A stretch of 64,000 nucleotides of DNA from assembly GCA_964564895.1 (NCBI GenBank), contig CAZMCB010000001.1, positions 19,689 through 83,688 on the forward strand. Reading direction: 5' to 3'. Position numbers and translations under genes: made by a program. The notes below the pieces were generated by a model that saw only the letters and a list, made by a program, of their open reading frames with translations, was not told where the DNA came from and did not search any database. Of the stretch, positions 11,133-63,158 are shown piece after piece. Source of the DNA: an uncultured Pseudomonadales bacterium (lineage in GTDB: Bacteria; Patescibacteriota; Microgenomatia; UBA1400; MFAQ01). Position 1 is the stretch's first letter. Each line of letters begins with the position of its first letter.

Positions 11133-11875
11133 TTAATGTAAAAAAATTTCTAGGTATTATTTCCGAAATTATAAATAAATTTCACGGTGAATCAAATAAA
11201 AAACCCCTCCATTATTTCAAAAACCCAATAAATAGATATATTAAGAAACCCATAACAGTATTTACGAGCATTACAGGAGACATGGATAAACTAATTGACG
11301 ACCAGGTGACTGAAGGAGCAAATTTTATTGCTTTTACTGACCAAAAAAGTAAAACATGGAAGACGTTTAAGCCTTACGATAAATTTAAAGACTATCGAAG
11401 GAATTCTAGAATCTATAAAATTATTCCTCATTTGTTTTTCGATACTGAATATTCGATTTGGATTGATGGAAATGTAAGACTAAAAGTACCAGCCCAAGAA
11501 GTGATTAATAAATTTCTACAACAAAAAGATATTGCTGTCTGGAAGCATCTTAATAGAGATTGTATATACGACGAAGCAGAGGCTTGTTTAATACAAGGAA
11601 AAGATACTCCAGAGGCACTTAATGAACAAATAAGTGAGTATAAAAAACGGGGTATCCCTGCACATGGTGGTTTGTACGCGGCGACAATAATTATTAGGAG
11701 ACACACAAAGAGGATTGGTGAATTAAATGAGAGGTGGTGGGCAGAATATACTAGGTATTCTCAAAGAGATCAAATAAGTTTTCCCGTTGCATTTCCTGCC
11801 GAAGAAATATGTTGTATTCCAGATGGAACAATGTGGAATAATAAATATTTTGAAAGAGTTAATCATAAAAAGTAG
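11129..11875 (+). CDS. DUF616 (TOD1/MUCI70-like) putative glycosyltransferase
   Basis: YKIIPHLFFDTEYSIWIDGNV and SQRDQISF match conserved blocks of the DUF616 family that I recall from plant TOD1 and bacterial capsule-locus proteins. Confidence 0.5.
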   Translation: MINVKKFLGIISEIINKFHGESNKKPLHYFKNPINRYIKKPITVFTSITGDMDKLIDDQVTEGANFIAFTDQKSKTWKTFKPYDKFKDYRRNSRIYKIIPHLFFDTEYSIWIDGNVRLKVPAQEVINKFLQQKDIAVWKHLNRDCIYDEAEACLIQGKDTPEALNEQISEYKKRGIPAHGGLYAATIIIRRHTKRIGELNERWWAEYTRYSQRDQISFPVAFPAEEICCIPDGTMWNNKYFERVNHKK

Positions 11876-20756: not shown

Positions 20757-21614
20757 TTATTGACCGTTGGCTTTTCGAAACACCTTGTTAACCCTGTCCA
20801 TGGCTTTCATGAGTTTAGGCTCAAAACCCATTTTTTCAGAGTCGTAAATGATCGCCTTTGTGTCTTTAGGGAAACACTTGCCTCCGTAACCTCTGCTTTC
20901 GGGAAAAACAAGGGTGTGATTTTTGTTTATTCTTGGATCTGCAAGCCAACACTCTCTTAGCTCGTTGTAATCTACTCCATATGTCTTCGCAATATCGAAC
21001 CATTCGTTACAAAAAGTAACTTTCATGGCAAAAAAACTGTTTTCCATATACTTTGTAAGAACTGCGGTCATCAAATCTACTTGGAAATATTGAGTATCGA
21101 CTCCCATTCTTCTTTTGAATACATCTACGCAAAAAGACGTGTCTTTTTTTTCTCCACCGAATACTTGCCAAGTATGTGCTTCCATGTTCGCGGGATCTGG
21201 GTATTTCCAAGCTGGCGTAAAGTATTTTGATTCACCCATGTATTCAGGGCTAAAAACAAATTTCTTGAACTTTTTACCTAATTCTGCCATCTCACTTGGA
21301 GGCATAGTTGACTTTACAAGAATTACCCCTTTGAAATTGATTTCTTTTGAAAGCCAAGTAAGAGTATCCCTTACGAGACTAGTATCTGCTTTTCCATTTG
21401 CAGTTTCGTTTGTAGGAACACTGATAACGGCTAGGTCTAGATCTTTGAAACTATTTTTATCTGTGAAATTGTATTCCTGTGCACTCATCTCTGAGGCGAA
21501 CTTTTTACCTTCTTCATTAATGAATGGATCATAAATCGCAGCAACCTCAGATTTGAACAATCGATGAATTCCCTTACCTACAACTCCATATCCAATAATG
21601 CCTATTTTGTACAT
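20757..21614 (-). CDS. UDP-glucose/GDP-mannose dehydrogenase-family protein, short form lacking the C-terminal NDP-sugar-binding domain
   Basis: MYKIGIIGYGVVGKG is the NAD Rossmann motif. The central block KYMENSFFAMKVTFCNEWFDIAKTYGVDYNELRECWLADPRI resembles the UDPGDH dimerisation domain. GGKCFPKDTKAI matches the catalytic-Cys motif GGSCFPKD. The protein ends ~36 aa after that Cys, at 285 aa. Confidence 0.6.
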   Translation of the reverse strand: MYKIGIIGYGVVGKGIHRLFKSEVAAIYDPFINEEGKKFASEMSAQEYNFTDKNSFKDLDLAVISVPTNETANGKADTSLVRDTLTWLSKEINFKGVILVKSTMPPSEMAELGKKFKKFVFSPEYMGESKYFTPAWKYPDPANMEAHTWQVFGGEKKDTSFCVDVFKRRMGVDTQYFQVDLMTAVLTKYMENSFFAMKVTFCNEWFDIAKTYGVDYNELRECWLADPRINKNHTLVFPESRGYGGKCFPKDTKAIIYDSEKMGFEPKLMKAMDRVNKVFRKANGQ

Positions 21615-21618
21615 GAGC

Positions 21619-22287
21619 CTAATTATAGTACCATCCAGGGATTTGTAATAGTATTTTTATTGCATCAAAAAGAGAGACTCCCTTGTATTTATCAATATAA
21701 ATTGTATCTACCTCTATCTCTTTATAATCGAGATGGTTTTTTCCTACCCTTGTGGCAATTTCTGTTTCAACTCCATATCGTGTAGAACGCCACTTTATTT
21801 GTTTGTAGACAGACTTATTGAATCCTAGATAGCCACAAAGAAATTCTTTTCTATTGATATCAAATAGAAACCTCAAAATGCTTTTGGCAATAATATTCCC
21901 CCATTTTCTGACAAAAGGCATTTCACCATTTAGCTTTCTATAACCAAAAACTAAATCGTGGTTAATTAATTCTTTCTCGAAATCTCTGAGGTGTTTAGGG
22001 TTATGTTGGCCGTCGGCGTCGATAAAAATTACAGCATCAGCTTTTAGTTTCCATGCCATAGACACTCCGGTTCGCATTGCAGCACCCTTACCGAGATTTA
22101 TTGCATGAGACAAAAGGAATACTCTTTTGTTGTTTTTAAATTTTTTGTTTAATACTTTCCAAGTATCATCTGTCGAACCATCGTCAATAACTACTAAATC
22201 ATTATTTGTATTCTTTAGAACTCTATTGATAGTATCAACTGCTCGAAAATTTTCATTGAAAGCCGGAATGATAATTATTGTTTTCAC
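21619..22287 (-). CDS. GT2 glycosyltransferase, polyprenol-phosphate sugar synthase-like (DPM1/GtrB-like, short)
   Basis: IIIIPAFNENFRAV...VVIDDGSTDDT and FIDADGQH are GT-A DPM1-like motifs. A 4-nt overlap links it to the upstream GT-C gene. Confidence 0.7.
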   Translation of the reverse strand: MKTIIIIPAFNENFRAVDTINRVLKNTNNDLVVIDDGSTDDTWKVLNKKFKNNKRVFLLSHAINLGKGAAMRTGVSMAWKLKADAVIFIDADGQHNPKHLRDFEKELINHDLVFGYRKLNGEMPFVRKWGNIIAKSILRFLFDINRKEFLCGYLGFNKSVYKQIKWRSTRYGVETEIATRVGKNHLDYKEIEVDTIYIDKYKGVSLFDAIKILLQIPGWYYN

Positions 22288-23777
22288 TTTGGATTGTTCT
22301 TAAAAATATAAATGTTGAAGGCACCTTTTTGGAGAACTTCGATTGGCTTCAGTTCTGATTCGTATTCTCTATCTTCCATAATAATTATCTTATATTTTGG
22401 AACTTGATCCGAAGAATTTTCATTTAGTATCCATCCAAAATATTCATTTGCTTGGCATTTAATCGGAAGACGCCCATAAATCCTGTACATAAAACACCAT
22501 CCGGCGTATTGGGGGTAAGTGGAACCACCGATTTCGGGTATTTCAACAGAGAATGATTCATCATTTATGACGCTCATTGTTTCAGATATTATCTGACTTC
22601 TGACAGTGAGACCGAACCTTGATTGATTGATGGTCAATACGGCAAAACTGTTGATTAGAATATAACCTCCCAACAATATTGTTGAAAGTCTTAATGGTAT
22701 TTGAGAAAGAAATAATCCAACGATAATTGCAAATAAAGCAAAGAAACTAACTAAAAAATATTCACAACTGGGACTGGGATAAAAAAGAAAGGCTGCAAGT
22801 ATCGATAAGGTAGTAAAAAATAAAATGCGTAAATTCTTTTCTCTTTTTTGTTTTATAAATAGCCATCCCAAAATAATTGTTGAAATAACAGATAGTTGCC
22901 AGTAACCTTTTGTCATGCCTGGGTGGACTCCTAAGAGCATTTCGTCTTGGATGGTCGTATATGGCTTGATAAACCAGAAACGACTTAAGGCTGTACCGAT
23001 TGATCGATAATTTCCAGAGATAACAGAGGAGTCAAATGACAAGCCATCTTCTTTTGAAGAAAATACGTAGCGAACAGGCCCTAATAGATTGTCGAAGTTG
23101 TGACTAATATCGAAAACGATCATCGGAGAAACGATAATAAGATATGCGGATATAGATAAAAACCATGATTTAAGAGAAATCTTTTTGATATTTTTGAGAA
23201 CGATAAATAGAACTAACGGCCAGAAAGCGACGAGAGATAAATGAATATGCAGAGAGATCGCCATCAAGGCGGAAGTCAGGACAAACCAACGAGAGTCCTT
23301 GTCGGCTTTGTAGAGTGAGTATAGAAGCCATACCGAGATAAATGGAATTGGTGTAGGATTCCAGAAACGTCGATCGAATATATTCATAAGTGCTGAAAAA
23401 CCATAGATAAGCAGGGCGAAAGTGGCTGCCTTTTTAGAGAATATTTTGGAGGTGATGTAATAGATGCTGAAACTGGTGGCTATACCCAGAAGAGGAGAGA
23501 AGATAGCCAGACTAACCAAATCCCCTCCTGAAAGCTTAAAGAGAATGGCATTGAGATAAGTAAAGGCGGGACCAAGATAGAAACCAAAATTACTGGCGCT
23601 AACGCCAATCCAGATAGGGTGGAAATTGAGCACTTGGGACCAAGCGAGAAATGCTTGGTATTCTTCGTCGAAGTTAAAACTAAACCAGTCTACGGCATTC
23701 CAAAGACGAAGAGCACAAAAAGCTACTATCAGAATACCAATCAATACTTTTGTAAAATTGAGCTTTGGCTTGGCCAT
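22284..23777 (-). CDS. GT-C glycosyltransferase, PMT/ArnT-family (GT39/GT83-like)
   Basis: Polytopic, with about 11 TM helices. The N-terminal loop FNFDEEYQAFLAW carries a D-E acidic pair, as in ArnT/PMT. A C-terminal soluble domain is present. Confidence 0.55.
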   Translation of the reverse strand: MAKPKLNFTKVLIGILIVAFCALRLWNAVDWFSFNFDEEYQAFLAWSQVLNFHPIWIGVSASNFGFYLGPAFTYLNAILFKLSGGDLVSLAIFSPLLGIATSFSIYYITSKIFSKKAATFALLIYGFSALMNIFDRRFWNPTPIPFISVWLLYSLYKADKDSRWFVLTSALMAISLHIHLSLVAFWPLVLFIVLKNIKKISLKSWFLSISAYLIIVSPMIVFDISHNFDNLLGPVRYVFSSKEDGLSFDSSVISGNYRSIGTALSRFWFIKPYTTIQDEMLLGVHPGMTKGYWQLSVISTIILGWLFIKQKREKNLRILFFTTLSILAAFLFYPSPSCEYFLVSFFALFAIIVGLFLSQIPLRLSTILLGGYILINSFAVLTINQSRFGLTVRSQIISETMSVINDESFSVEIPEIGGSTYPQYAGWCFMYRIYGRLPIKCQANEYFGWILNENSSDQVPKYKIIIMEDREYESELKPIEVLQKGAFNIYIFKNNPK

Positions 23778-23788
23778 AAGTTAGTTTA

Positions 23789-25975
23789 TCATTTTGGTTT
23801 TTGTATCCAATAGATTAAGACCAGTACCGGCAACATAATATATGCCAACATAACTCCACGAGGATAATAACCAGTGGTAACTAAAGGTAGATGTGCAAAA
23901 ACGAAAAATATAAATAGACAAAACATGACTGTCTTAACTGATAGTCTGACCTTCTTAGAACAAAAGACTTGGATGAGAAAAATTCCAAACAATACTAATA
24001 CTGAAATATCTATCCCCGAAGGAATCATAATTTTGAAATTTTCAAAAATATTTGATTGGGAAACCATGGCTGCTGTGGTGTTTGATTGATAATACTGTGC
24101 AGCTGAGCCAATATTTAGGCCACCCATAACGGCATTGAGCACTATGAGAATCAAAGCAGTTCCTGATGGGATAAGGAATCGAATAATTTGTTTGAATTCT
24201 AGTTTGTTTCTTATTAGAAATATCAACATAAAATATGGAACAAAATATATTAAATTTGGAGTTCTAAACATCAAAGTCATTGCCCAGATAATTCCTGAAA
24301 CGACAAACCAAAGAGTGATTTTTGTTTTTTCTATAAACGGCAGTAATGCTAGCCATGAAATAGCAAGAAGTGCTAGAGGCCATGTATAGACTTCGGACAG
24401 AGGAACCATACTTCGTATAAAGAGACTGTTTACATGAAGATACAGATACCAATAAACACTTGAAAATAATACAACAGTAGTAAATGTTTCTAAAACGCTT
24501 GTTTTCTTTTCATATATGAATATGCAAAAAAGTGCAGTCGACATGAATAAAAGCAGACTGGATTGAAGAATCCAGTATGAAAAGGTATCTAAAAATATGT
24601 TTCCATCACCGAATGCGACCATGGTTAGGGATTTGAAATATAGAAATAGAGGCTTAGAGGTAACTACTGTTGGCTCTACAAATAGGGTTTTATTTTGAGC
24701 AATATCTCTGGCCCAAGAAAAATATGTAAGCTGATCATGGCCGACCAGATAAAGCTCTGTTCCATCCCGTAAAGATGGAGATACTAACAACAAGGATGGA
24801 AAAATAACAATGAACATCCAAAGAAAAATAATTATCGATTGGCTTTGACCAATTTTGATGAGATTTTGGAGTAGTTTACGAATAATGCCAGAAGAATAAA
24901 TAATTATTAAAACGAAAAAGGCAATTTTCATTATTACCATGTTGTTGTCTAGAGCAAAAGCGTTTTTGGAGAACTTAAGGAATCCTGTTCCGACAATCTT
25001 TAGAAGAACAAAGGCTATAGAACAATTTATCGCGATTTTAAAAATGTCAGAAATAATATTCCTTATTGAGATTTGATGACGAATAAATGATAAGGATTTT
25101 ATAAAAGCATTTGAAACCAAAAAACATATATATATTCCGAAAAATATTAATAGTGAAATATATCCGAATTTTCCGATTAATTGAAAAAGTTTTGGTTGGA
25201 AAAAATCTGTAGATACTATTTTTTGAGTGTTATTATCGTTTATGAAAAGTGATATCTTTGCCTCGGATTCAGAGATTGAATTAACATTGAAACTTCTGGC
25301 ACAGTCTAAGAAATTATCTTTATCGTTATTACACTCATAGTTTGAAAATGATAAATCAAGACTATCATCTGAAAAATTATCTATTTTAATTTCTTTTTCC
25401 TCTTTGGAAAAACCATGATTTGTATTTCCTATAGATACATTACCTTGGTATTTGATTGTAAACGAGATACTGTCAGAACCTGATTTTTCTCGTAATAACT
25501 TAATTTTTTGAGAGTTTAAATAGAATGATGATGTGAAAGGATATTTGTTTTCAAGGCGATACTCTTCCCAAATTGCGGAGTTACTTTTACTTTTTCCATA
25601 AACATTGTAGGACAGGCTATTAAAACCACTTAATCTCCATTTTTGGGAACTTGATGAGGAGTTAAAATCTATTTCTCTTTCATATCGAGAAATCGATGAA
25701 TTCTTGAACGGGAAATCTAGTGAAAACATGCATTCATCAGAAGCATTTGGAAGCCTAATACATGTTGGAATGCCATATGTTACTCGACTAAAATAGTTTG
25801 ACCCAATAATTAGTCCTAAAAAAATTATCCAAACAAATTGGAATTTGAAAAAGTATTTTGGAAAAACAATACGAGACATTTTGGACCAGAGTAAAACAAA
25901 TAGAACCAGAAAAAGCCAGGACATAATTACCCAGAATGTTGTCAACTCAACCACTGAATGTAGATTAAAAAACAT
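23789..25975 (-). CDS. Large membrane protein: N-terminal TM, ~230-aa Ser/Asn-rich extracytoplasmic domain, then a ~450-aa polytopic domain
   Basis: 728 aa. Hydrophobicity pattern only; no recognisable catalytic motif. Confidence 0.4.
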   Translation of the reverse strand: MFFNLHSVVELTTFWVIMSWLFLVLFVLLWSKMSRIVFPKYFFKFQFVWIIFLGLIIGSNYFSRVTYGIPTCIRLPNASDECMFSLDFPFKNSSISRYEREIDFNSSSSSQKWRLSGFNSLSYNVYGKSKSNSAIWEEYRLENKYPFTSSFYLNSQKIKLLREKSGSDSISFTIKYQGNVSIGNTNHGFSKEEKEIKIDNFSDDSLDLSFSNYECNNDKDNFLDCARSFNVNSISESEAKISLFINDNNTQKIVSTDFFQPKLFQLIGKFGYISLLIFFGIYICFLVSNAFIKSLSFIRHQISIRNIISDIFKIAINCSIAFVLLKIVGTGFLKFSKNAFALDNNMVIMKIAFFVLIIIYSSGIIRKLLQNLIKIGQSQSIIIFLWMFIVIFPSLLLVSPSLRDGTELYLVGHDQLTYFSWARDIAQNKTLFVEPTVVTSKPLFLYFKSLTMVAFGDGNIFLDTFSYWILQSSLLLFMSTALFCIFIYEKKTSVLETFTTVVLFSSVYWYLYLHVNSLFIRSMVPLSEVYTWPLALLAISWLALLPFIEKTKITLWFVVSGIIWAMTLMFRTPNLIYFVPYFMLIFLIRNKLEFKQIIRFLIPSGTALILIVLNAVMGGLNIGSAAQYYQSNTTAAMVSQSNIFENFKIMIPSGIDISVLVLFGIFLIQVFCSKKVRLSVKTVMFCLFIFFVFAHLPLVTTGYYPRGVMLAYIMLPVLVLIYWIQKPK

Positions 25976-25995
25976 CTGGTTTATTAGTACGGAGG

Positions 25996-27039
25996 CTAGA
26001 CTAACTTTTTAATAATTGGAATTTTTTTAATGAGATAGATACTTAAAAAGCTAAAGAACACACAAAGAACAATTAGTCCACCTAACCACAAAATGTAATT
26101 TGAAGAAAAAGCAGAAATAAAGAAATTTGTATTTTTGAAATATAGTAACCAAAGAGGATGAATTAAATAAACTCCTAATGATAATTCTGAGAGAGATGCA
26201 ATTTTTTTGAATGATGAAAGTCGCTTATTACTTAAATTGATAACAATATAGAAGAGAAAATTTGCAGCAAGAATTACAGGGACTGAAAAATGCTTTACAA
26301 AAACCAGAACCATTTCTTGGCTCGTGTAAAGAAAAAATGTTTTTCTTGTTATCAATACGCCGAGAAATAGTAACAGAGATGATAATGCGATCAATAATAC
26401 TGGGTGTTTAGGTGGTGATTTTTTTCCTATCCAGTATCCTGCTATGTAATAGCCTAGATATGGGAGAAACCAGTTAAAAATATTGCTAACCTGAGGAAAT
26501 CCAAAAAATGAATAAAGAATTAGATAAGCTGCAGAACAAAGAAAAAGAAAGGGAACAATAATATTTAGATTCTTGTTTAATACGTATTTTTTAATTAATG
26601 GAGTAAAGAGATAAAGACCAAACATAACATTAATAAAATACAGATGATACTCTGTTCCCGAGCGCCAAAGATTGTCGATAAAATCAAGAGGATTTGCAAG
26701 AGACGCCATCCCTTTATTTAGTACGTAATAGACTAGACACCAAAAAATGTAAGGAATTAAAATTCTACTCAGCCTTCGACGATAAAATTCTTTTGGATTA
26801 TTAGATAAATCTGAGTTTAATAAAAAATATCCACTAATCATGACAAAGACAGGAGTCCCCCATTTAAGCATCCAGTTTAGGCCATTGGTAATTAACCACC
26901 AATGATAGCCAACCAAATCAAGCTTGTAATAGATTAGAGAGGTAACATGCATGACAACAACTGCGGTCGCGGCAATAACCCTAATAAGATCGGCTGAAAT
27001 CTTTCTTTCTTTTTGGCTTGTTTGTATCTGTGTAGTCAA
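25996..27039 (-). CDS. Acyltransferase family 3 (OatA/OafA-like) membrane O-acyltransferase
   Basis: KISADLIRVIAATAVVVMHVTS matches the acyltransferase_3 N-terminal RxxxxDxLRxxA...H motif. About 10 TM helices. Confidence 0.65.
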   Translation of the reverse strand: MTTQIQTSQKERKISADLIRVIAATAVVVMHVTSLIYYKLDLVGYHWWLITNGLNWMLKWGTPVFVMISGYFLLNSDLSNNPKEFYRRRLSRILIPYIFWCLVYYVLNKGMASLANPLDFIDNLWRSGTEYHLYFINVMFGLYLFTPLIKKYVLNKNLNIIVPFLFLCSAAYLILYSFFGFPQVSNIFNWFLPYLGYYIAGYWIGKKSPPKHPVLLIALSSLLLFLGVLITRKTFFLYTSQEMVLVFVKHFSVPVILAANFLFYIVINLSNKRLSSFKKIASLSELSLGVYLIHPLWLLYFKNTNFFISAFSSNYILWLGGLIVLCVFFSFLSIYLIKKIPIIKKLV

Positions 27040-27048
27040 TTTTGTCTT

Positions 27049-28185
27049 TTAGCCAATAAAGTAACCCCTTGTAAAGAAGCCGATGGAAAGTATGGAAAGA
27101 ATGATGCAAAAGGCGTAGTAAATATAACTGACAAAAGGATGGCGCTTATCTAGCCAAGAAGCTAAGAAAATAAACATAGGAAAGAGAACTACAGCGTATC
27201 TAGGAAGACTTGAGAGAGTACCGGTGAGAGTAGGTAGAATGTAAGAGAAGGAACAAAAAATCCAGTACGAGGGACGGATTTTTTTGATTGAGAAGATGAG
27301 AAGCATAAGAATCAATAATCCAACAAGGAATTCTAGAATGACAGAGAAATAGGTGGAGCTCCAAGGGTCGACTGTAAAAATCATCTTGATGTATCGGTAA
27401 AAAACTTGATAGAGAAGAATCAGCTTGTCTGTAGTTCGGCCCGGAACGTAGTGCTGATAATTAATGAAGAAGAAGGCGTCCCCTGTCATGCGGAACTGGT
27501 AGTACATATAGGAGAGCAAGCCGATGGGAGGAGTAGCAAGCCAGAGAATCTTGGGCTTAAGGAAGGTCTTTATCCCCTCTCCATAAGTGTTGAAATACTC
27601 GATGATGAGAGCAAACCAGATGAAGATGCCTGTGACTCTTGTGGCCGATAGGATTGCGGCTGCGATACAGGCTAAGGGGAAATTCTTTTTGCGAGCGAAG
27701 TAAAAAGATAGAACAGCAAGAAGTAAAAAGGTAGACTCGTTGTAAACACTGCCGAAATAAAATGATGTAGGAAAAATGAGGATGAGAAATAGCGTGTATT
27801 TAGCAATCTTTGCCGAGTAATCAAGCCTTATCAGCTTGTACAAGAAAAAGAGGGCGAAAATAAATGAGAGACTGGATACAATGAGGCCGGAGACGGTAAA
27901 ATTTCCGATCAATGGATTGATTTGCTTTATGAGCCAAGGGTAAACTGGGAAAAAAGCGTAGACCTTGTCTGTTTTGGTTAGAGTGCCGTAGTCGTATTTG
28001 GCAATGCTTTGATAGTGAAGGCCGTCGAAATTGGACCACATGGTAAGCAGATCACCAGTGGACGCTTTTGGAGTGAGATTGGTGAAAGTAGTGCTGGGTT
28101 TGAGAACGAACATGGCGAGAACAGCAACAAGAAAAATGAGAGTGCGCCAGATGAGGAATTTTTTGAATATGTTTCCGAGAGACAT
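27049..28185 (-). CDS. GT-C-like membrane protein (DUF2029/PIG-V mannosyltransferase-like)
   Basis: WSNFDGLHYQSIAKYDYG...AFFPVYP resembles the WDGxxYxxIAxxGY...AFFPLYP block of PIG-V/DUF2029 proteins. Polytopic. Confidence 0.5.
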   Translation of the reverse strand: MSLGNIFKKFLIWRTLIFLVAVLAMFVLKPSTTFTNLTPKASTGDLLTMWSNFDGLHYQSIAKYDYGTLTKTDKVYAFFPVYPWLIKQINPLIGNFTVSGLIVSSLSFIFALFFLYKLIRLDYSAKIAKYTLFLILIFPTSFYFGSVYNESTFLLLAVLSFYFARKKNFPLACIAAAILSATRVTGIFIWFALIIEYFNTYGEGIKTFLKPKILWLATPPIGLLSYMYYQFRMTGDAFFFINYQHYVPGRTTDKLILLYQVFYRYIKMIFTVDPWSSTYFSVILEFLVGLLILMLLIFSIKKIRPSYWIFCSFSYILPTLTGTLSSLPRYAVVLFPMFIFLASWLDKRHPFVSYIYYAFCIILSILSIGFFTRGYFIG

Positions 28186-28267
28186 GGTTAAGATTGATTA
28201 TATCGCTTGGAGATGTTTTGGGTGGAGAGGATTTGATTTCGGGTATTGTTTGGTGTTAAATGAATGT

Positions 28268-28606
28268 ATGGGAAAATATATTGTTCGTAGATACGAAAAT
28301 CTAAACGGTAAGGATCTTATTAAGGAATTCTTTTTAAAATGCTCTACGGCTCAACAAGCAAAAATATCTCGTCAAATATTTCATCTTGAGTTTTACGGTA
28401 TCTCGAGACTAAATCCAACTCTTAAAAAAGTTGCTGGAACAAATTTATGGGAAATGAGAAGCCTTGGAAAGGATAATATTAGAATATTCTGTGCTCAGGA
28501 TAATAATTCAATAATTTTATTGCACATAATTATTAAGAAATCACAAAAAACAAGTCAAAAAGATTTATCAATTGCAATTAAAAGATATAGTGATTTATTT
28601 GATTAA
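28268..28606 (+). CDS. Type II toxin, HigB/RelE-superfamily (phage Gp49-like, PF05973-like)
   Basis: The 112-aa version starts at MGKYIVRRYEN. WEMRSLGKDNIRIFCAQDNNSIILLHIIIKKSQKTSQKDLSIAIKRYSDL matches the Gp49/HigB-like pattern (..E.R...IRI.......I.LLH...KKSQKT....I..A..R). The ORF-track frame extends upstream to 28031 and overlaps the neighbouring gene. Confidence 0.7.
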   Translation: MGKYIVRRYENLNGKDLIKEFFLKCSTAQQAKISRQIFHLEFYGISRLNPTLKKVAGTNLWEMRSLGKDNIRIFCAQDNNSIILLHIIIKKSQKTSQKDLSIAIKRYSDLFD

Positions 28607-28633
28607 ATATATCTTTTATGATATATTAACTTT

Positions 28634-28924
28634 ATGAGAAAACTAAAATTATTTTCTGACCTATTTAAAGAGATGTTGCAAGATCCCGAATTCAAAAAGG
28701 AGTGGGAGAAGCTAGAACCTCAGTATCAACTTGAACACGAAATTATTAAGGCGAGAATTGAAAGCAAATTGACTCAAGAGGAATTGGCTAAAAAAATGGA
28801 TACTACTCAAGCAGCAATTTCCCGAATTGAGTCTGGCTCAGTAAGCCCTTCAATTAATACCGTCAATAGAATCGCGATGGCTTTCGGGAAGAAATTGGAA
28901 ATTAGATTTGTGTCGCCTGATTAA
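28634..28924 (+). CDS. XRE-family HTH antitoxin (HigA-like)
   Basis: LTQEELAKKMDTTQAAISRIESGSVSPSINTVNRIAMAFGKKLEI is a classic HTH_3/XRE domain. It lies 27 nt downstream of the toxin, in toxin-then-antitoxin (HigBA) order. Confidence 0.75.
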   Translation: MRKLKLFSDLFKEMLQDPEFKKEWEKLEPQYQLEHEIIKARIESKLTQEELAKKMDTTQAAISRIESGSVSPSINTVNRIAMAFGKKLEIRFVSPD

Positions 28925-29927
28925 CTTTGCGATAGACATCTAGCGTGGCTTTGGCTGTTTTGGACCATGTGAACGTATCGGCTTTGGCCTTGGCTATTTC
29001 GATTTGATTTTGTTTTTCTTTGGGGGTGAGTGAGAGAGCTTTTTTGATAGCTTTTTCCATAGACAGTAGCTTTCTAGGATTGAAAGTGATGGCTCCTTCG
29101 TGATAGATCTCAGGGAGACTGCTGGTACTGGAGCTTGCGACCAAGCAACCTGCAGTCATGGCTTCAAGAAGTGGTAAACCAAAACCTTCATAAAGTGATG
29201 GTTGGACATAAAGAGTGCTTAATCTGTAGAGAGCACTGAGATCTTCATTTGATACAAAGCCTGGCAGTATTAGATGCTTGTAGACCTTGAGGCGAACCAT
29301 ATCGATAAGCTCGGGGTGAACTGGTTCTTTGATTTCTTGGAGCATTCCTTTGCCTACAATCACGAGAGGAATATCTAGCCTATCTGTGACTTCGGCGAGG
29401 GAGGGAAGATTTTTATTAGGATTTGGGCCGCCAGCAACGGTGAGAATGAATTTGTTGGGGAGATTGAGTCTTTTTTTGACCTCTTTTAATTTTTCTTCGG
29501 AGATGTCTTTTTTATAAATCTGGTCGATGGCGAGTGGGGTGACAAAAATCTTTTCCGAGGGGACTCTGAAGATTTTTTCGATATCGTTTTTGGAGCTAAC
29601 TGAGTCGGTGATGATGGCAGAAACTGACTGGAGTGAGAGCCATTGTCTGGCTAGGTTTATCGTACCCTTGATGCCTTTGGGGTAGCGACTGGATAGAACT
29701 AGAGGAGTGAGATCGTGGATGGTAACAATGGTGGGCTTTTCTTTTTTGAGCGGAAGAGTGGCGTAGAAAAGATCGAAGAAAGGATAGTGAATGATATCGG
29801 GATTTTTGTCTGTAAGAGTCACATCTGACAATTTCTCAAGTGCCTTGGCTAGATTGTCGGCATAGAAGCCAACTCCCCTACCTTTAGAGTGATCACCGCT
29901 GTTTAGAAAAACTTTGATTTTATTCAT
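28902..29927 (-). CDS. GT4 family glycosyltransferase
   Basis: YEGFGLPLLEAMTAGCLVASSSTSSLPE is an EX7E motif. Its 3' end overlaps the convergent antitoxin gene by 23 nt. Confidence 0.8.
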   Translation of the reverse strand: MNKIKVFLNSGDHSKGRGVGFYADNLAKALEKLSDVTLTDKNPDIIHYPFFDLFYATLPLKKEKPTIVTIHDLTPLVLSSRYPKGIKGTINLARQWLSLQSVSAIITDSVSSKNDIEKIFRVPSEKIFVTPLAIDQIYKKDISEEKLKEVKKRLNLPNKFILTVAGGPNPNKNLPSLAEVTDRLDIPLVIVGKGMLQEIKEPVHPELIDMVRLKVYKHLILPGFVSNEDLSALYRLSTLYVQPSLYEGFGLPLLEAMTAGCLVASSSTSSLPEIYHEGAITFNPRKLLSMEKAIKKALSLTPKEKQNQIEIAKAKADTFTWSKTAKATLDVYRKVNQATQI

Positions 29928-31120: not shown

Positions 31121-31970
31121 GTTCCCAGAGCTTCATGTAAGAGAAAGCGTGATGAAGACCAGAGTAAAGTGAGAAAACAAAGCCTGGGAATCCATCCAAG
31201 AAACCACGATGGCGGAAATAGAGAGTGATGAAGGTGCCTGCTGGTTTGAAAAATAGAAAACTAATGGTGTTTAACAAATTAACTTTGAGTCCTTGCTCGT
31301 TGTAGAATCTGGCCTGCAGACTAGAGTAGCGATTTTCTCTAAGTAAGTATCTGCTGAAGTCTGGGGTGGCGTAGTGATCGAGATCTGTTTTGAGCCAGCC
31401 TACCACTCCATCTACTTTCATCTGCTCATGAACATCTTTGGCTGGAAGAGTGGCTTTGCCTTTTTGAAAAAGCCTAATGACTGGGTCTGGGTACTGTCCT
31501 GTGTTTTTGAGGTATCGGGTGAGAAAAAAGTTTTTTCTGGGAAGCCAGTAAGCCGAGGCTGGTTTTTCAAGTTTCTTGGGTTCTGGGAAAATCTTGACTA
31601 TTTTGTTTACTTTTCTTCTAAGGGGACTGATCCAATTGTCGTAGCCTGTGTACTCTCCTTTTAAGAGACTGATTATTTCATTTTTCATCTGCTTAGTAAT
31701 TCTTTCGTCGGCGTCTAGCTGGAGAATCCAGTCTGATTTGGCTTTGGCGATGGCTTTGTTTTTGGTGATGTGGAAAATTTGCTCGTGGGGCTCACTGAAC
31801 ACCTTTGCTCCTAAACCCTCGGCTAACCCTTTGGTTTTGTCGGTACTTTGCTCGTCTACTATGATGATTTCGTCTACCCAGCCTTTGACGGATTTGAGAC
31901 AGTCAACAATGTTTGACTCTTCGTTGAAAGTGGCTAAAACAACTGAGATGGTTTGAGTTTTATTTTTCAT
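31098..31970 (-). CDS. GT2 family glycosyltransferase
   Basis: ISVVLATFNEESNIVDCLKSV...IIIVDEQSTDKT and LDADE are GT-A motifs. Confidence 0.75.
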   Translation of the reverse strand: MKNKTQTISVVLATFNEESNIVDCLKSVKGWVDEIIIVDEQSTDKTKGLAEGLGAKVFSEPHEQIFHITKNKAIAKAKSDWILQLDADERITKQMKNEIISLLKGEYTGYDNWISPLRRKVNKIVKIFPEPKKLEKPASAYWLPRKNFFLTRYLKNTGQYPDPVIRLFQKGKATLPAKDVHEQMKVDGVVGWLKTDLDHYATPDFSRYLLRENRYSSLQARFYNEQGLKVNLLNTISFLFFKPAGTFITLYFRHRGFLDGFPGFVFSLYSGLHHAFSYMKLWELKKVDEV

Positions 31971-33598
31971 TTGGTTGAGGAAAACTTGAACATAATATCT
32001 CCTGAAGGTGATTTTATCGTGTTTATTAGTTTTGTATCATCGACTTTTTCTTCGGCAGAGATGAGAAGAGCATTTGGAATTTTCATATCTTCCTCGTAGT
32101 TTATGGCTCTGAATTCATATTTACCCAACTTTCTGCCTGTAGAAAAACCGTATTTATCTGGATCGGAATATTTGATGTCTTCTTGAAGCCTTTCTGGAGA
32201 ATATTTAGTGAAAAAGGCAATTAGGATGTATGGCTGATCATAACGATCGGAGATAATTATTTTGTCGTACTTATCGTAGTTCTCTTTTGTGTATTCGGCA
32301 ATTTGATCGAAGCCATATTGCCAAGCAAAAGGAAGCCTCTCTGGATACTCAACATAGTACATATTGAGGTAGCGGGTGAAGTTGTATGAACAAATAGCGA
32401 CAACAAGAACAGTAACAAGGATAAATAGTTTGGGAAGATTCTTTTTTATAAATTTGAAAAATTCAAACAAACCTACTGCTGTAATTATGCTTAGTGGAAT
32501 CGCCATGTTTTGGGCTCTTAGGGCGTGAGGAGACTGATAAGTAATGGAGGCGGCAAGAGGAGCAATCAAGAGCCAATAAAGTAAAACAAATTTACCTTTT
32601 GAATCAAACCTTAGAATATTTAAGATTCCAAGAAAGAAAAATGGTAATAGAGAAAGAAGCGATTGACCCATCTCGGGAACTTTGCTTCTGGCTATTGCAT
32701 CACCATTGGTGAAGAGAAAATCCGGAGAAAAATGACTCAGATAATTGTGAGTAAAGCGCATGCCATAAGTGAAGTATTTGTTATGGAATATATTTGTCCA
32801 ACCTCCTGCACCTTTGTGTTCATTTCGGAAATTTTCAGCTTCCCATACTGGGCCATTATCAGAGAAGATAGATACACCTGAGAATCGAGACTGACCCGCA
32901 GTTGAAAACATTTGAAACACAATAGGAAGTGCAAGAACAATAGATAATACAAGAGCAGAAAGAGTAATTTTGAGATTTGTTTTTGAAAAAAGCCTCTTTA
33001 CTTTATCAAAGTAGATGATGGCAAAGACAATAAAAAGAACTGGGGAGATAATTCTGGCTGAGTGATAAGTGTACAGAGATAGAACTGTGGAAATTCCAAA
33101 GACAAAAAGATATTTTGGTTTTTCAAATGATTTGAGAAAGAAAATGGTGGATAAGAGAATGAAGAAAGTGGCGACATTTACTTCCCAACCTCCTCGAGAA
33201 AACTGTAGATGCCAAGGAGAAGTGGCGAGGACAAGGGCTGCAATCTCTGGTAAATATTTTCTTTCAGAAAATAAACGTTTGGTGAGTAAAAATATTAAGA
33301 AAACACTAGCAATGCCAAGAAGAGCACTGGGGAGACGAACTGACCAGACAGAAAGACCCATCACTTTGACAAAGGGAAGGACGATATAAAAATATAGTGG
33401 TGGTTTGTAATCATCAAATGATCTAAAGACCAAAGGCCAAGCGACTCCATGCTCGTCTTTGCCTGTTTCAATTAAAGACCAAGCGTTGTAACCTATGGCT
33501 GCTTCGTCGGCATTGAGACCAGCTGGATGAATGTCAAGAAATGCAAGACGCAAAATGGCGGCGAGAATTAGAATGGCAATAATTAGTTTATTTTTCAT
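31967..33598 (-). CDS. ArnT/PMT-family GT-C glycosyltransferase (paralog 1 of 3)
   Basis: GLNADEAAIGYNAWSLIETGKDEHG...PLVFRSFDDYKPPLYFY matches the ArnT/PMT first-loop signature. 543 aa, polytopic with a C-terminal domain. Confidence 0.7.
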   Translation of the reverse strand: MKNKLIIAILILAAILRLAFLDIHPAGLNADEAAIGYNAWSLIETGKDEHGVAWPLVFRSFDDYKPPLYFYIVLPFVKVMGLSVWSVRLPSALLGIASVFLIFLLTKRLFSERKYLPEIAALVLATSPWHLQFSRGGWEVNVATFFILLSTIFFLKSFEKPKYLFVFGISTVLSLYTYHSARIISPVLFIVFAIIYFDKVKRLFSKTNLKITLSALVLSIVLALPIVFQMFSTAGQSRFSGVSIFSDNGPVWEAENFRNEHKGAGGWTNIFHNKYFTYGMRFTHNYLSHFSPDFLFTNGDAIARSKVPEMGQSLLSLLPFFFLGILNILRFDSKGKFVLLYWLLIAPLAASITYQSPHALRAQNMAIPLSIITAVGLFEFFKFIKKNLPKLFILVTVLVVAICSYNFTRYLNMYYVEYPERLPFAWQYGFDQIAEYTKENYDKYDKIIISDRYDQPYILIAFFTKYSPERLQEDIKYSDPDKYGFSTGRKLGKYEFRAINYEEDMKIPNALLISAEEKVDDTKLINTIKSPSGDIMFKFSSTK

Positions 33599-35198
33599 CT
33601 GTTTTGGTTTTTACTATTCTGTAGGCAACGAACCCGTCGGGGAATTTAATTTCTTCAAATCTTTCTATGGCAGGATTATTTTTGTCGAACTCGTTTTTTA
33701 TGTTTCCGATGGTGCCAATAAAAGTAGTATTTTGCTGGTTAGATATTTCGCTGTCACTAAACTGATGAAACTCGATATTATCTAGCTTGGCAACATGCCC
33801 GACGTCAAAGCCCCCACTAATAAAGGAGTTTTGTCTTTGATAGGAGGCGGGATCGTAACGAGAATAAAAAAGGTAGAAAATGTATGGCTGACCATTAACG
33901 TCGGTCATAACTACAATATTTGATTTGTGATCATTGATAAAGCGAACCGCCTCCTTGTAGCCGAACTGGAACTCATGGGCATAAGTATAGTTTGCATGAA
34001 CTAAGAGCAAGTCCACCATATATATAGTAGTGACTAAGGTGAGGAGAGAAATAAGAATAAATAGTGACTTTAATTTAGTAAAGGCGAAAAAGAGTCCTGA
34101 ACCGATGATAATTGATAAGGGAATAACCATAAATAAAGTTCTTACTGTGGAGTACTCCGAAAGAGTGAGGGCTCCAGGGATCGGAGAGAGTAATAAAAGC
34201 CCGATGATAAGAACACTGATTCTTTTGTTGGCGAATCTCATAAGGAATACAAGGCCCAGAACTAGAGCAATAAAATCAAATGGTTGAAGAACTCCAAGAT
34301 TTGGAAAATGTCCCCTCTCATTGACTGTCATACCTTCGTAGAATAGAAGTTTAGGAGACAAGTGATTTAGGTAACGACCAGCAATAAGACGAGTCATTAA
34401 CTGAGGTTTGTTTTCTATGATGCTCGTTGATATTTCTGGTTCGTAGGAGAAAATACTAAGTCGTTTTAACCTGTTCCCCGCATCACCAAAAGACGAGGAA
34501 ATAAAAATTGAAAGTACAGCTGCCACTGCAATAACTGTAATAGTGATATTAATTGGTTTTTTGAAGTACTGCCCTAGCTTGCTGAAGAAACTTTCTCGAA
34601 ATACGATAATGATGAAAAGAATCAGAAGAGGGGTGAGCATCTTGGCTGCTTGGTAAGTGATGAGGGTTAGAACCGCCAAAATTATTGAGTAATTTAGGAA
34701 TTTTCCGGACTTTATATATCGAACTAAAAAGTAAATTGAAAAAAGGAGCATGGTGGTAAAAACATTGGATTCCCAAGCACCTCGGGACAGATGAATATGA
34801 AGTGGCATGATGGCAAGGGCGAGGGCTGCGAACTGAGCTAAAAGAGATTTCTTCTTCTCATCTTCAAACAGCTCTCTTGTTAAAAGAAAAACACCAAAGA
34901 TAGCTAGTATTCCAAATAGGACACTTGGTAGACGAACAGCAAATTCGGAAAGACCAAAAATGGCAATAGAGGGAATAGCTAAATAAACATATAACCCTGG
35001 CTTGTAATCGCCGAAGCTTTTGAAAACAATGGGCAGAAACTTACCAAACTCGTCTTTGCCGGTTTTGAGAACTGAGAAGGCATTGTAACCTAGGGCGGCC
35101 TCATCCCAAGTGAGTGCATTGGGAATTGATCCAACCTCGTAAAGTCTAAGGAAGGCTCCAAGAACTAGGGCAAGAATAAGGATGATGTACTTTTTCAT
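33588..35198 (-). CDS. ArnT/PMT-family GT-C glycosyltransferase (paralog 2 of 3)
   Basis: LTWDEAALGYNAFSVLKTGKDEFGKFLPIVFKSFGDYKPGLYVY is the same motif block as its neighbours. Confidence 0.7.
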   Translation of the reverse strand: MKKYIILILALVLGAFLRLYEVGSIPNALTWDEAALGYNAFSVLKTGKDEFGKFLPIVFKSFGDYKPGLYVYLAIPSIAIFGLSEFAVRLPSVLFGILAIFGVFLLTRELFEDEKKKSLLAQFAALALAIMPLHIHLSRGAWESNVFTTMLLFSIYFLVRYIKSGKFLNYSIILAVLTLITYQAAKMLTPLLILFIIIVFRESFFSKLGQYFKKPINITITVIAVAAVLSIFISSSFGDAGNRLKRLSIFSYEPEISTSIIENKPQLMTRLIAGRYLNHLSPKLLFYEGMTVNERGHFPNLGVLQPFDFIALVLGLVFLMRFANKRISVLIIGLLLLSPIPGALTLSEYSTVRTLFMVIPLSIIIGSGLFFAFTKLKSLFILISLLTLVTTIYMVDLLLVHANYTYAHEFQFGYKEAVRFINDHKSNIVVMTDVNGQPYIFYLFYSRYDPASYQRQNSFISGGFDVGHVAKLDNIEFHQFSDSEISNQQNTTFIGTIGNIKNEFDKNNPAIERFEEIKFPDGFVAYRIVKTKTDEK

Positions 35199-36868
35199 GG
35201 TAACGATACAATTATAAAGGCTGGAGTACCATCAAGAAAATTAATCGTTTTTAGAATTTCTGCGTTTTCCGGGACGTGTTTTGGTGCGGTGATGAGAAGA
35301 CTATTTTGGGTACTGACTACTTCTTTGCTTTCGAGAGTGAGACTGTCAATTGATGAATCCGGAATATCTTTCTCGTTTACAAAATAATACTTTCCAATTC
35401 TATCCACCCAGTACCACTCAGATTGATAAAACCTAGTGGTAATATTTTTGTCTTGAAGGACCTCAGGACTTATCCTATTTGAAAATAAGTAAAAGATGTG
35501 TGGCTCACCGTATTTTTTGGTGATGAAAATTTTATCGTAGCTATCTTCGTTTTCTTTGGCGAAATTAATGGCTTCTTGTGTGCCGAATTGCCAAGATTCT
35601 GAGTATTTAATTGGATACTCGAAAAAATATTTATTAAGGTAAGTACCAAAGCAAACTAAGGTGAGTAAAACCAAGACACTTGAAGCAGTTTTTGATTTTT
35701 GCGAAATTTTCCAGAGTGCTAGGGTCGAAATGATTACGATTACGGGAATCATAATAATAGGACGGATTGCTTGGGGCGGATCTGCAGTAAGAGACGCGGC
35801 AAGCGGAGAAAAAATTAACCAAGCAAGAAGAAATTGTGATGTTTTTTCTTTCCTGAGATTAATAAGAATCAGCAGTGTTCCAAAATACAAAAGCAACATA
35901 ATAGGAAGTGTGATCATGTTTGTGTTAGGAATGGCAAACTGCCATTGGGGACCATCGCTTTGAGTAAAGAAGGGAGGTAAAAGGTAGCTAAAGTAGTTGG
36001 CGGCTAGAGCGGAAACAAAATAGACAGGTCTGTTGTGAACAAGCGTGGGTAATGGAGCCGGAAGAGTACTTTCTGTTCGTTTTTGACCAATTTGGAAAAC
36101 AGCGTTTTCGGACAAAATCTTGACTTGGTCGTACCTTGCGGTACCTTCTCCTCCGATGGTTTGGAAAACAACTAAAAACACAAAAAGAGAAAATATGATC
36201 GTAGAAACTATTGAAATGAGATTTATTTTTGGTTTTATTTTGAAAATTATGATTGCGGCTAAGAGCATAGGAAGAACAAACACTCTGGCAGAGTTGTATG
36301 TATGCATCGATAGACCAAGAAGAAGAGCTGAAATAATGAGAGAGACCGGGTTTTGTTTTGATCTTAATAAAAAGTAAAAACCATAAATTATTAGTGTGAG
36401 AGCTAGATTGGCTTCAAATGCTGGCCGTGACATGAAAAAATGCCAAGGAAGAATGGACAACAAAAAGGACGAGAGTAAGGCTAGGCTTATCTGCGTTCCA
36501 AAGAGAGTGATTTTCTTGTCTGGGAAAAGTTCTTTTACCAGTAGATATATTCCATACAAAGCAAAAAGACCGGCAATCATAGAAACAAAACGAACTGCAA
36601 AAGCGTTGAGACCAAAGATAGCGATTGGAAGAATTGATGAGTAGATATATACAGGAAGTTTGTAATCTCCAAATGCCCTGAAAATTAGAGGAAAACTTTT
36701 GCCCCATTCGTCTTTGCCTGTAGTGAGAATAGAGTAAGCATTGTATCCATGGCTGACTTCATCCCAGTTTAGACTGGGAGGATTTCCAGTAAAGTTAACT
36801 AGCCTTACTACAATAGAAGCTATAAAAACTAGAGCGAAAACAATTTTAACTATGTGTTTCTTGAACAT
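35195..36868 (-). CDS. ArnT/PMT-family GT-C glycosyltransferase (paralog 3 of 3)
   Basis: LNWDEVSHGYNAYSILTTGKDEWGKSFPLIFRAFGDYKLPVYIY is the same motif block. Confidence 0.7.
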   Translation of the reverse strand: MFKKHIVKIVFALVFIASIVVRLVNFTGNPPSLNWDEVSHGYNAYSILTTGKDEWGKSFPLIFRAFGDYKLPVYIYSSILPIAIFGLNAFAVRFVSMIAGLFALYGIYLLVKELFPDKKITLFGTQISLALLSSFLLSILPWHFFMSRPAFEANLALTLIIYGFYFLLRSKQNPVSLIISALLLGLSMHTYNSARVFVLPMLLAAIIIFKIKPKINLISIVSTIIFSLFVFLVVFQTIGGEGTARYDQVKILSENAVFQIGQKRTESTLPAPLPTLVHNRPVYFVSALAANYFSYLLPPFFTQSDGPQWQFAIPNTNMITLPIMLLLYFGTLLILINLRKEKTSQFLLAWLIFSPLAASLTADPPQAIRPIIMIPVIVIISTLALWKISQKSKTASSVLVLLTLVCFGTYLNKYFFEYPIKYSESWQFGTQEAINFAKENEDSYDKIFITKKYGEPHIFYLFSNRISPEVLQDKNITTRFYQSEWYWVDRIGKYYFVNEKDIPDSSIDSLTLESKEVVSTQNSLLITAPKHVPENAEILKTINFLDGTPAFIIVSLP

Positions 36869-62618: not shown

Positions 62619-63158
62619 TTATTTGAATACCTGGGCCTTGTAATATTTTAACTCATCTATCGACTCGAGAATGTCATCGTGAGCTCGATGAGTTTCTTCT
62701 TTGTGAAAGGCAGGAAGGGATGGATACCAACGAAGAGCTAGTTCTTTGATGGTGGTCACATCAATAATGCGATAGTGTACAAAGGCAGCAAGGCGAGGCA
62801 TATGTAGTCTTAAAAATTCACGATCAATATGAACTGAGTTTCCAGCTAATAAAGCCGTATTTGAAGGGCTGATTTTTTTGAGAAATTGGAGAGTTTGTTC
62901 CTCGGCTTCAGCTAAAGTGATTTTTGAGTCGTGTATTTCGTTTAGAAGGCCTGACTCGGCAAAGTGTTCTTGATTCCATGCAATCATGTTATTTAGAACT
63001 GAGCTTGGCTGGTTGATAACCAGATCAGGACCTTCGGCTAAAACATTTAATTCTCCGTCTGTCACTATCGTCGCAATCTCAACGATCTGATCTTTTTCAG
63101 GATTGAGCCCTGTCATTTCTAGATCTATCCAGATTAATTTTCCGTTGGTACTGCTCAT
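62619..63158 (-). CDS. orn: Oligoribonuclease (DEDDh 3'-5' exoribonuclease)
   Basis: LIWIDLEMTGLNPEKDQIVEIATIVTD is Exo motif I (DxE). GNSVHIDREFL is Exo II. YRIIDVTTIKEL...HRAHDDI is Exo III with the catalytic His. 179 aa. Confidence 0.85.
   Translation of the reverse strand: MSSTNGKLIWIDLEMTGLNPEKDQIVEIATIVTDGELNVLAEGPDLVINQPSSVLNNMIAWNQEHFAESGLLNEIHDSKITLAEAEEQTLQFLKKISPSNTALLAGNSVHIDREFLRLHMPRLAAFVHYRIIDVTTIKELALRWYPSLPAFHKEETHRAHDDILESIDELKYYKAQVFK

Follow-up and report, generated by a model that had tools for sequence, protein, structure and literature searches.

An intact Gp49/HigB-XRE toxin-antitoxin pair with a predicted antitoxin promoter of its own, apparently exchanged as a cassette in a glycan cluster

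Genes at the locus and identity of the pair

The element described here is a pair of small genes on contig CAZMCB010000001.1, in which a gene for a Gp49/HigB-type toxin is followed by a gene for an XRE-type helix-turn-helix (HTH) antitoxin (Table 1). The whole stretch of DNA that was analyzed, 64 kb long, is called the window; the copy of the pair that it carries was compared with related loci, designated L001, L002, and so on. Both open reading frames (ORFs) reported in an earlier note on this DNA, of 112 and 96 amino acids (aa) and separated by 27 nucleotides (nt), were found, as were the blocks quoted from the toxin, namely, WEMR (W61 to R64), IRIF (I71 to F74), and ILLHIIIKKSQKT (I83 to T95). 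The pair indeed lies at a strand switch, with a divergent glycosyltransferase (GT) gene upstream and a convergent one downstream. The overlap of the antitoxin gene with the 3' end of the GT4 gene is also seen in L001 and L002.

Table 1. Coordinates of the pair, its predicted control sites, and adjacent features in the window
Feature	Position	Strand	Description
Toxin gene, 112 aa	28268-28606 (stop 28604-28606)	+	Gp49/HigB-type, RelE/ParE superfamily
Antitoxin gene, 96 aa	28634-28924	+	XRE-type HTH; start 27 nt past toxin stop
Toxin promoter-like site	28233-28261	+	TTGATT (28233-28238), 17-nt spacer, TTAAAT (28256-28261); ATG 6 nt later
Antitoxin-only promoter-like site	28599-28627	+	TTGATT, 17-nt spacer, TG-n-TATATT; ATG 6 nt later; consensus scan
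Candidate operator, 22-nt palindrome	28606-28627		AATATATCtT-TT-ATGATATATT; between the genes; spans antitoxin promoter spacer and -10
Invariant 25-nt motif TTCGGGTATTGTTTGGTGTTAAATG	28238-28262	+	Toxin promoter spacer and -10; single in window, 0 expected
Upstream neighbor, GT-C gene	27049-28185	-	Divergent from toxin gene
Downstream neighbor, GT4 gene	28902-29927	-	Convergent with antitoxin gene
Convergent 23-nt overlap, antitoxin 3' end/GT4 3' end	28902-28924		Right edge of cassette; ORF coordinates
Replaced DNA (approximate)	28211-28942		~92 nt instead in relatives with adjacent GT-C/GT4; blastn

The toxin matched the Pfam family Gp49 (PF05973) over profile positions 1 to 89 of 90 (E = 1.4e-15; 57.5 bits, curated cutoff 23.9), far above the cutoff and in agreement with its earlier placement among the Gp49-like toxins of the RelE/HigB superfamily; it also matched phrog_2523 at 1.5e-16. 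The sole PDB match by sequence was HigB of Streptococcus pneumoniae (6AF3), for which E was 5.6e-5 when the toxin sequence alone was used and 7e-14 when a profile built from 11 homologues was used. The AlphaFold model (pLDDT 90.6, pTM 0.84) consists of a RelE-type sheet and a long C-terminal helix, the latter having been described for Gp49-like toxins (PMC9098466), with predicted elements at E5-8, H17-24, and H27-43, four strands, and H97-111. When the model was compared with the PDB by Foldseek, S. pneumoniae HigB (6AF4) ranked first and ribosome-bound Mycobacterium tuberculosis HigB1 (7NBU) second, each with a template modeling (TM) score of 0.74, followed at lower ranks by Vibrio cholerae HigB2, RelE, YoeB, and ParE.

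The catalytic pocket of M. tuberculosis HigB1 is made up of E66, R68, N73, R77, K95, Q98, and K99, and R68, R73, and K92 of the S. pneumoniae toxin are equivalent residues (PMC9098466). The corresponding window residues, E62, R64, N70, R72, K90, Q93, and K94, are invariant across the alignment of 11 homologues. An aromatic position of these toxins (F90 in S. pneumoniae, F93 in M. tuberculosis) is Ile88 in the window toxin, Phe in most homologues, and Ile or Val in the two nearest relatives. The family has approximately 22,000 members, with the toxin gene first and with ribosome-dependent degradation of mRNA (PMC11980606). The toxin is thus predicted to be a ribosome-dependent mRNA endonuclease and, by homology, would enter the ribosomal A site and cut mRNA by means of the E62/R64/R72/K90/Q93/K94 cluster. 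A HMMER scan of 1.84 billion cluster representatives with the single sequence gave 459 toxin matches at E<=1e-3, and a genome scan gave more than 423 relatives spread over many phyla; the closest named ones are from Candidatus Collierbacteria, Gottesmanbacteria, Daviesbacteria, and unclassified metagenome-assembled genomes of Patescibacteria, a group to which the window probably belongs.

The toxin frame is open upstream as far as a TTG at 28031, as had been noted before; the long frame overlaps the 5' end of the neighboring gene rather than its 3' end, because that gene lies on the minus strand. The true start had consequently been called ambiguous. Four homologues of exactly 112 aa aligned end to end with 100% coverage, a TGA closes the toxin frame 13 to 15 codons 5' of the ATG in L001 and L002, and the DNA conserved 5' of the toxin in L003 is not in the toxin frame. 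On these comparative grounds the start is settled at 28268, and the conservation 5' of the ATG is deduced to act at the DNA level. The same data ruled out both a 191-aa extended ORF starting at 28031 and the reading of the conserved upstream motif as a coding N-terminal extension, DFGYCLVLNEC.

The antitoxin has a conserved N-terminal segment (approximately residues 1 to 35) followed by an XRE-type HTH domain at residues 37 to 89, which matched Pfam HTH_3 (E = 7.5e-15; 55.1 bits, cutoff 23). Its best PDB match was HigA of S. pneumoniae (6AF3_B; E = 1.4e-6, residues 22 to 90 aligned with 21 to 89). The score against the NCBIfam HigA equivalog TIGR02607 was 18.3, below the cutoff of 47.7, which places the antitoxin outside that narrower family. 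A homologous antitoxin gene lies directly 3' of the toxin gene in 23 of 84 related loci, among them nearly all of those with a toxin identity of at least 37%, and the toxin-first order was present in every examined related locus having such an antitoxin. The XRE-type partner and toxin-first order of the earlier note were both confirmed in this way. The ratio of nonsynonymous to synonymous substitutions (dN/dS) was 0.04 to 0.17 wherever dS was computable (0.12 to 0.17 for the toxin), and both genes are therefore maintained by purifying selection. Identification of the two genes as an intact type II toxin-antitoxin module, of the Gp49/HigB and XRE/HigA class, is based on sequence, predicted fold, and gene order and is regarded as secure. 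By homology, the 96-aa antitoxin would dimerize and neutralize the toxin by binding it in a complex of the HigB-(HigA)2-HigB type.

Predicted promoters and candidate operator

Each of the two genes is preceded by a promoter-like site of its own. The stretch before the toxin was retained in the window, L001, L002, L005, and L006, and in L003 at the DNA level, out of frame; the consensus scan passed over it, the second position of its -10 hexamer being T. In the site before the antitoxin, the -35 hexamer TTGATT overlaps the last toxin codon and the stop codon, and a site at the same position was found in L001, L002, L005, and L006. There is no Shine-Dalgarno (SD) sequence 5' of either gene. Since both ATGs follow 6 nt past a -10 hexamer, an SD sequence is missing, and several operon-first genes are alike in this, both mRNAs are probably leaderless. 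The operon-first genes concerned, which start at 28185 (-), 29927 (-), 29966 (+), and 39838 (+), have a TATAAT-like box 6 to 13 nt before the start and no SD sequence; mRNAs with no leader, or with a very short one, may be widespread in this genome.

The earlier note had pointed to 28186-28267 as the place of a palindromic operator. None was found there (best inverted repeat, p = 0.83 versus shuffles), and a weak direct repeat upstream of the toxin (28208-28235) was discarded as not conserved. The candidate operator lies instead between the genes. It has the form AATATATCWT-NN-ATGATATATT with one mismatch in the window, where it is the single site of this form, with none expected by chance. 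The junction from toxin stop to antitoxin ATG is also the best-conserved DNA of the cassette, being 91% identical over 121 nt among the window, L001, and L002, above the coding parts of the pair, which are approximately 50 to 80% identical.

This arrangement is supported by a regulatory comparison of 21 loci that have the same antitoxin type and are partly related by descent. The genes are separated by a gap of 11 to 69 nt in 19 of them. These gaps contain a -35-like TTGAC(A), often over the toxin stop codon, and a palindrome that covers the spacer and the -10, with the ATG 3 to 11 nt past the -10. The usual form in the gapped relatives is TTGAC(A)-16/18-TATCAT/TATATT. The promoter-like junction site was significant against shuffles (p<=0.033) at 14 of the 21 junctions, and a palindrome was significant (p<=0.05) before the antitoxin ATG at 13 of the 21 loci and before the toxin at 1. 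The canonical layout of a single-promoter, autoregulated type II operon, in which the operator overlaps a single promoter before the first gene and the two genes are cotranscribed and translationally coupled, is not that of the window; it is found in L021 and L084, where the genes overlap with an SD sequence, no junction promoter is present, and the palindrome is located upstream of the toxin instead. In L084 this upstream palindrome is ATATCATATATGATAT, within TTGACA...TATAAT, and has the same sequence as the junction operator of the window type.

The palindrome arms vary among the loci, with both arms changing together. Arms of the GATATC type are paired with the recognition helix T[TS]QA[AVI]IS (QA[AVI] with GATAT), GGTATA-type arms with TTQAKIS (QAK with GGTAT), and GTGATA, GTTATA, or ATGCTA arms with T[KQ]QS. 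This is what an operator bound by an antitoxin dimer should look like, for loci that are not phylogenetically independent.

Other interpretations of the junction were considered. An RNA hairpin or terminator with 11-nt perfect arms (28579-28589/28608-28618) was rejected, as z was -1.76 and 15 of 200 shuffles folded as well; the arms were not kept in L001. A local antitoxin regulon was ruled out within the window, since no second copy of the palindrome was found in the 64 kb and half-sites occurred at chance level.

The pair is accordingly not described as a simple autoregulated operon, and a predicted two-promoter architecture is well supported by the comparison of loci. In this architecture, the toxin would be read from the site at 28233-28261, which carries no palindrome, and the antitoxin from its own promoter at 28599-28627, the better consensus match of the two. 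The antitoxin dimer would most likely bind the 22-nt palindrome and repress its own synthesis. The extra promoter would hold the antitoxin in excess over the toxin, and the dosage problem of toxin-first modules would therefore be solved. Antitoxin-only promoters are documented for the toxin-first mqsRA module (PMC6918082).

Exchange of the pair within the glycan cluster

The history of the pair was deduced from its comparison with its flanks. Between the window and L001, amino acid identity is 96% for the acyltransferase, 93% for GT-C, and 95% for the C-terminal 83 aa of GT4 (synonymous differences per site of 0.21, 0.54, and 0.35, respectively) and only 63% for the toxin and 73% for the antitoxin (0.80 and 0.75, respectively). 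Nucleotide identity between the two loci falls at approximately 28190 and returns at approximately 28880. The flanks join the window to L001, the GT4 tail of the window being 95% identical to that of L001 and 78% identical to that of L002, whereas the antitoxin joins L001 to L002 (91%) with the window at only 69 to 73%, so the tree of the antitoxin is incongruent with that of the flanks. Faster protein evolution alone was ruled out as the cause of the divergence, as synonymous sites are saturated and the trees are incongruent.

The limits of the exchanged DNA were seen in relatives without the pair. In blastn comparisons of window positions 28100 to 29000 with L087 and L088, only 28103-28210 and 28943-29000 aligned around the slot. 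The GT4 alignment to pair-less loci ends at residue 333 of 341, leaving the last 8 or so window GT4 codons in the cassette-side DNA. Further slot states were found by a metagenome scan with the toxin promoter motif. L085 has a Bro-N gene together with a pair whose toxin is 42% identical, and L096 has a pair beside a 55%-identical GT-C gene, while in L087, L088, and L099 the GT-C and GT4 genes are 64 to 100 nt apart without the pair (4443-4541, 11423-11521, and 8320-8382, respectively). In the vacant slot of L087, the left flank is kept and is followed by a decayed sequence that resembles the motif of the toxin promoter; such a sequence is also present in L088. This remnant suggests that the pair was deleted from the L087 and L088 slots.

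Since the pair has diverged between like flanks, has an incongruent tree, and is missing from the slot in other relatives, the data indicate a replaceable cassette subject to allele replacement and to loss by recombination at a fixed slot. The pair would then be a selfish or accessory element that recombination exchanges within a mosaic glycan locus, and not a dedicated part of glycan synthesis.

These data bear directly on the suggestion of the earlier note that the pair is an addiction module stabilizing the glycan island, such that loss of the region would remove the labile antitoxin and leave the toxin to kill or arrest the cell. Type II modules of this family stabilize plasmids, and HigBA2 of Acinetobacter baumannii did stabilize an unstable plasmid (PMC5906591). 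The pair also keeps its place beside GT-C genes of 93% down to 55% identity, and the composition step at 27039/27049 (described below) suggests a mosaic origin of the region. The pair is, however, the least conserved element of the locus (63 to 73% identity against 93 to 96% for the flanks) with a history unlike that of the flanks, and relatives retain the GT-C and GT4 genes and their neighbors without it, the apparent decayed copy of the toxin promoter corresponding to a tolerated deletion. Nor is the island held constant, as the surrounding glycan genes vary among relatives (PMT_2 at 48%, extra ORFs). Stabilization of the island is for these reasons considered improbable.

A role in phage defense, also raised in the earlier note, was weighed against the same data. 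In an abortive-infection module, infection would deplete the antitoxin or release the toxin in another way, and translation would stop before the phage cycle is completed, and the location in a surface-glycan locus, among genes for phage receptors, would be a meaningful co-location of antiphage traits. RelE/ParE-superfamily toxins, gp49 included, are discussed as defense toxins (PMC11980606). The allele turnover at a fixed slot resembles that of defense hot spots, the 25-nt promoter motif is found in related genomes before further genes of the conflict type (RhuM-Fic/DOC and Bro-N), and the closest relatives (the window, L001, L002, L003, L005, L006, and L085) are all among glycosyltransferase genes, at at least three different sites. 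On the other hand, no system model of PADLOC-DB 2.0 fits; toxin residues 59 to 107 gave only a weak, partial match to the C terminus of NsnC (E = 3.3e-5), and the antitoxin gave generic HTH matches only. No further defense genes were found in the window. No close relative was found in IMG/VR viral contigs, where the best full-length match was 34%, and a phage origin of this subclade was rejected on that basis. The co-location may also be passive, because glycan clusters fill a large share of these small genomes and are recombination prone. The idea of a remnant does not fit either, as both genes are intact and are kept by purifying selection. A defense role is thus rather unlikely, and the evidence on biological role (selfish cassette, defense, or stabilizer) leans toward a selfish cassette.

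Taken as a whole, the data are best explained by an intact HigBA-class toxin-antitoxin pair whose antitoxin has its own, self-repressed promoter and which is exchanged as an accessory cassette, and we consider this explanation likely, with good confidence. Several points weigh against it. The antitoxin promoter of the window taken by itself is not significant in AT-rich DNA (p = 0.17) and its palindrome by itself is marginal (p = 0.04), the case being built on conservation across partly kin loci. No terminator-like sites were found in 27900-29100; with no terminator between the genes, read-through from the toxin promoter is likely, and the two-promoter picture may for that reason overstate the independence of the genes. 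The predicted internal higA promoter of the Gp49-type A. baumannii HigBA2 was inactive (PMC5906591). The window toxin has Ile88 in place of F90 of S. pneumoniae HigB, mutation of which impaired activity (PMC7984235), and M. tuberculosis has three HigB toxins of the Gp49 type, two of which (HigB2 and HigB3) were nontoxic when tested (PMC9098466).

The last two points would also be accounted for if the toxin were attenuated or inactive and the pair were mainly a transcription factor with a small partner, without growth inhibition. The replacement of the aromatic residue in the window toxin and in the two relatives nearest to it is in line with this, as is the poorer consensus match of the toxin promoter relative to that of the antitoxin. 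The charged residues of the catalytic pocket are nevertheless all invariant, the toxin is under purifying selection, and the operator is single in the window, so that no local regulon is visible. An attenuated or inactive toxin is therefore considered quite unlikely.

The founding members of PF05973, gp49/gp48 of phage N15 and the Tad-Ata pairs of Paracoccus plasmids, are also toxin-first with an HTH partner; they differ from the window pair in being phage carried and plasmid carried, respectively. S. pneumoniae HigBA (6AF3/6AF4) is the best PDB match of both proteins and has the same gene order, an XRE antitoxin, a long C-terminal helix in the toxin, and residues R68, R73, and K92 that correspond to R64, R72, and K90 of the window. 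Its antitoxin binds palindromes, but the identity is approximately 25%, its palindromes are upstream of higB whereas that of the window is between the genes, and its F90 corresponds to Ile88 (PMC7984235). M. tuberculosis HigB1 (Rv1955; 7NBU/7AWK) has the same Gp49-type fold, and its seven pocket residues listed above map onto residues of the window toxin. It serves as the mechanistic template, as it binds in the A site of the ribosome and cleaves mRNA there. It is only approximately 15% identical and belongs to a toxin-antitoxin-chaperone (TAC) system, which needs a SecB-like chaperone as third gene, whereas the window pair has no third gene (PMC9098466).

In A. baumannii HigBA2, a toxin with a Gp49 domain likewise precedes an XRE antitoxin that is a repressor, but the operator of that module is located at the operon promoter, its toxin is a corepressor, and it is plasmid borne (PMC5906591). 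In E. coli MqsRA, also toxin-first, antitoxin promoters inside or behind the toxin gene uncouple transcription of the antitoxin; the proteins are of the MqsR and MqsA families, and the mqsA promoters are constitutive, whereas that of the window is overlaid by the palindrome and is presumed to be autorepressed (PMC6918082).

The pair itself matters little, as there are tens of thousands of Gp49/HigB and XRE pairs, which act by an established mechanism. It does provide a clean comparative example of a toxin-first module with a predicted operator and antitoxin promoter between the genes, next to canonical sister loci that carry the operator upstream, and a junction operator bears on how toxin-first modules keep the antitoxin in excess. 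That the pair is replaceable while its slot in the mosaic glycan locus stays fixed, moreover, argues against reading such pairs as island stabilizers.

The 25-nt motif and the surrounding cluster

The 25-nt motif of the toxin promoter, as the pattern TTCGGGTATTGTWTGGTRTTAAATG, gave exact matches at 19 sites in 18 metagenome loci; one of these loci is the L001 contig, and one allele is represented by several copies. The sites precede 12 Gp49-XRE pairs, 6 RhuM-Fic/DOC genes, and 1 Bro-N gene. They include L085 297-321 and 1197-1221, L087 2296-2320, and L088 9273-9297, as well as sites in L090, L092, L095, and L101. The Bro-N and RhuM genes behind the motif are alike in their first 9 codons (MTKTKSKEM). 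The motif contains GGTATT-N4-GGTGTT with a 10-nt period. Such an invariant spacer before genes of unrelated kinds suggests that they have a regulator site or a recombination arm in common. Its presence ahead of toxin-like genes that are not related to one another is also a hint that accessory genes in this little-studied group of bacteria are controlled together or exchanged.

A broader proposal is that interchangeable "conflict" cassettes (Gp49-XRE, RhuM-Fic/DOC, and Bro-N), each with the 25-nt leader TTCGGGTATTGTWTGGTGTTAAATG, are shuffled into glycan-locus slots of Patescibacteria-like genomes; the leader may then be a regulatory site for all of them, an arm for recombination, or both. We regard this proposal as doubtful at present. 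If true, it would link toxin and defense genes to receptor-glycan variation. To our knowledge, such a cassette-exchange arrangement has not been described.

A repetitive element resembling repetitive extragenic palindromes (REP) or miniature inverted-repeat transposable elements (MITE), with conserved ends and the form GAGATTGCCACG-variable hairpin-CTCGCAATGACG, was observed directly 5' of the motif and toxin promoter in L001 (4860-4953, two tandem copies) and L006 (5919-5958), which are two different genomic sites, and is absent from the window. A similar sequence, ggtctcgcaatga, is located 5' of the 25-nt motif in L090 and L092. L005 (CAYGCQ010000001.1) is labeled "uncultured Pseudomonadales," and its pair, promoter motif, and neighbors (ferredoxin, B12-radical SAM, and GT2) match those of L006 from Candidatus Collierbacteria; the taxonomic label of L005 looks doubtful.

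Almost all other genes with a Pfam match in 628-62615 are glycan related. The cluster contains GT2, GT4, PMT_2/GT-C, GT87, YfhO, and PTPS_related membrane proteins, two flippases, sugar-modifying enzymes, methyltransferases, an acyltransferase, and an AsnB-like amidotransferase. Approximately 9 ORFs of the cluster have no Pfam match, and an RNase_T gene follows at 62619-63158. The earlier description of the pair as the only nonglycan module thus holds as far as annotation reaches. No Rfam families or tRNA genes that could mark an integration site were found in the window.

The base composition of the pair also differs from that of its surroundings, a point raised in the earlier note: the toxin gene has a GC content of 0.28 and a GC content at third codon positions (GC3) of 0.19, and its neighbors have values of 0.42 to 0.43 and 0.45 to 0.51, respectively. 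The toxin was AT-richer than the flanks in all five genomes checked (GC3 of 0.18 to 0.33 versus 0.40 to 0.59). A separate step is located at 27039/27049, where the acyltransferase gene (GC 0.32, GC3 0.27) gives way to the GT-C gene (GC 0.42, GC3 0.51); GC is approximately 0.30 to 0.35 from 5 to 27 kb of the window and approximately 0.36 to 0.44 from 27 to 64 kb. This step suggests a mosaic glycan cluster assembled from two sources.

Between window positions 22284-27039 and L001 1139-3639, the PMT_2 proteins are only 48% identical and the adjoining acyltransferases 96%, and in the window an extra 728-aa ORF without a Pfam match (23789-25975) lies between the two genes. Tandem arrays of paralogous large membrane glycosyltransferase-like genes were observed at 31967-36868 (three PMT_2) and 55313-60405 (three PTPS_related). 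The ORF at 20757-21614 (-; 285 aa) resembles UDP-glucose/GDP-mannose dehydrogenases, with a partial match to the N-terminal domain and no match to the C-terminal domain, and may be truncated. The large cluster ORFs without a Pfam match, all on the minus strand, are at 50703-53864 (1,053 aa), 17333-19246 (637 aa), and 2750-4408 (552 aa).

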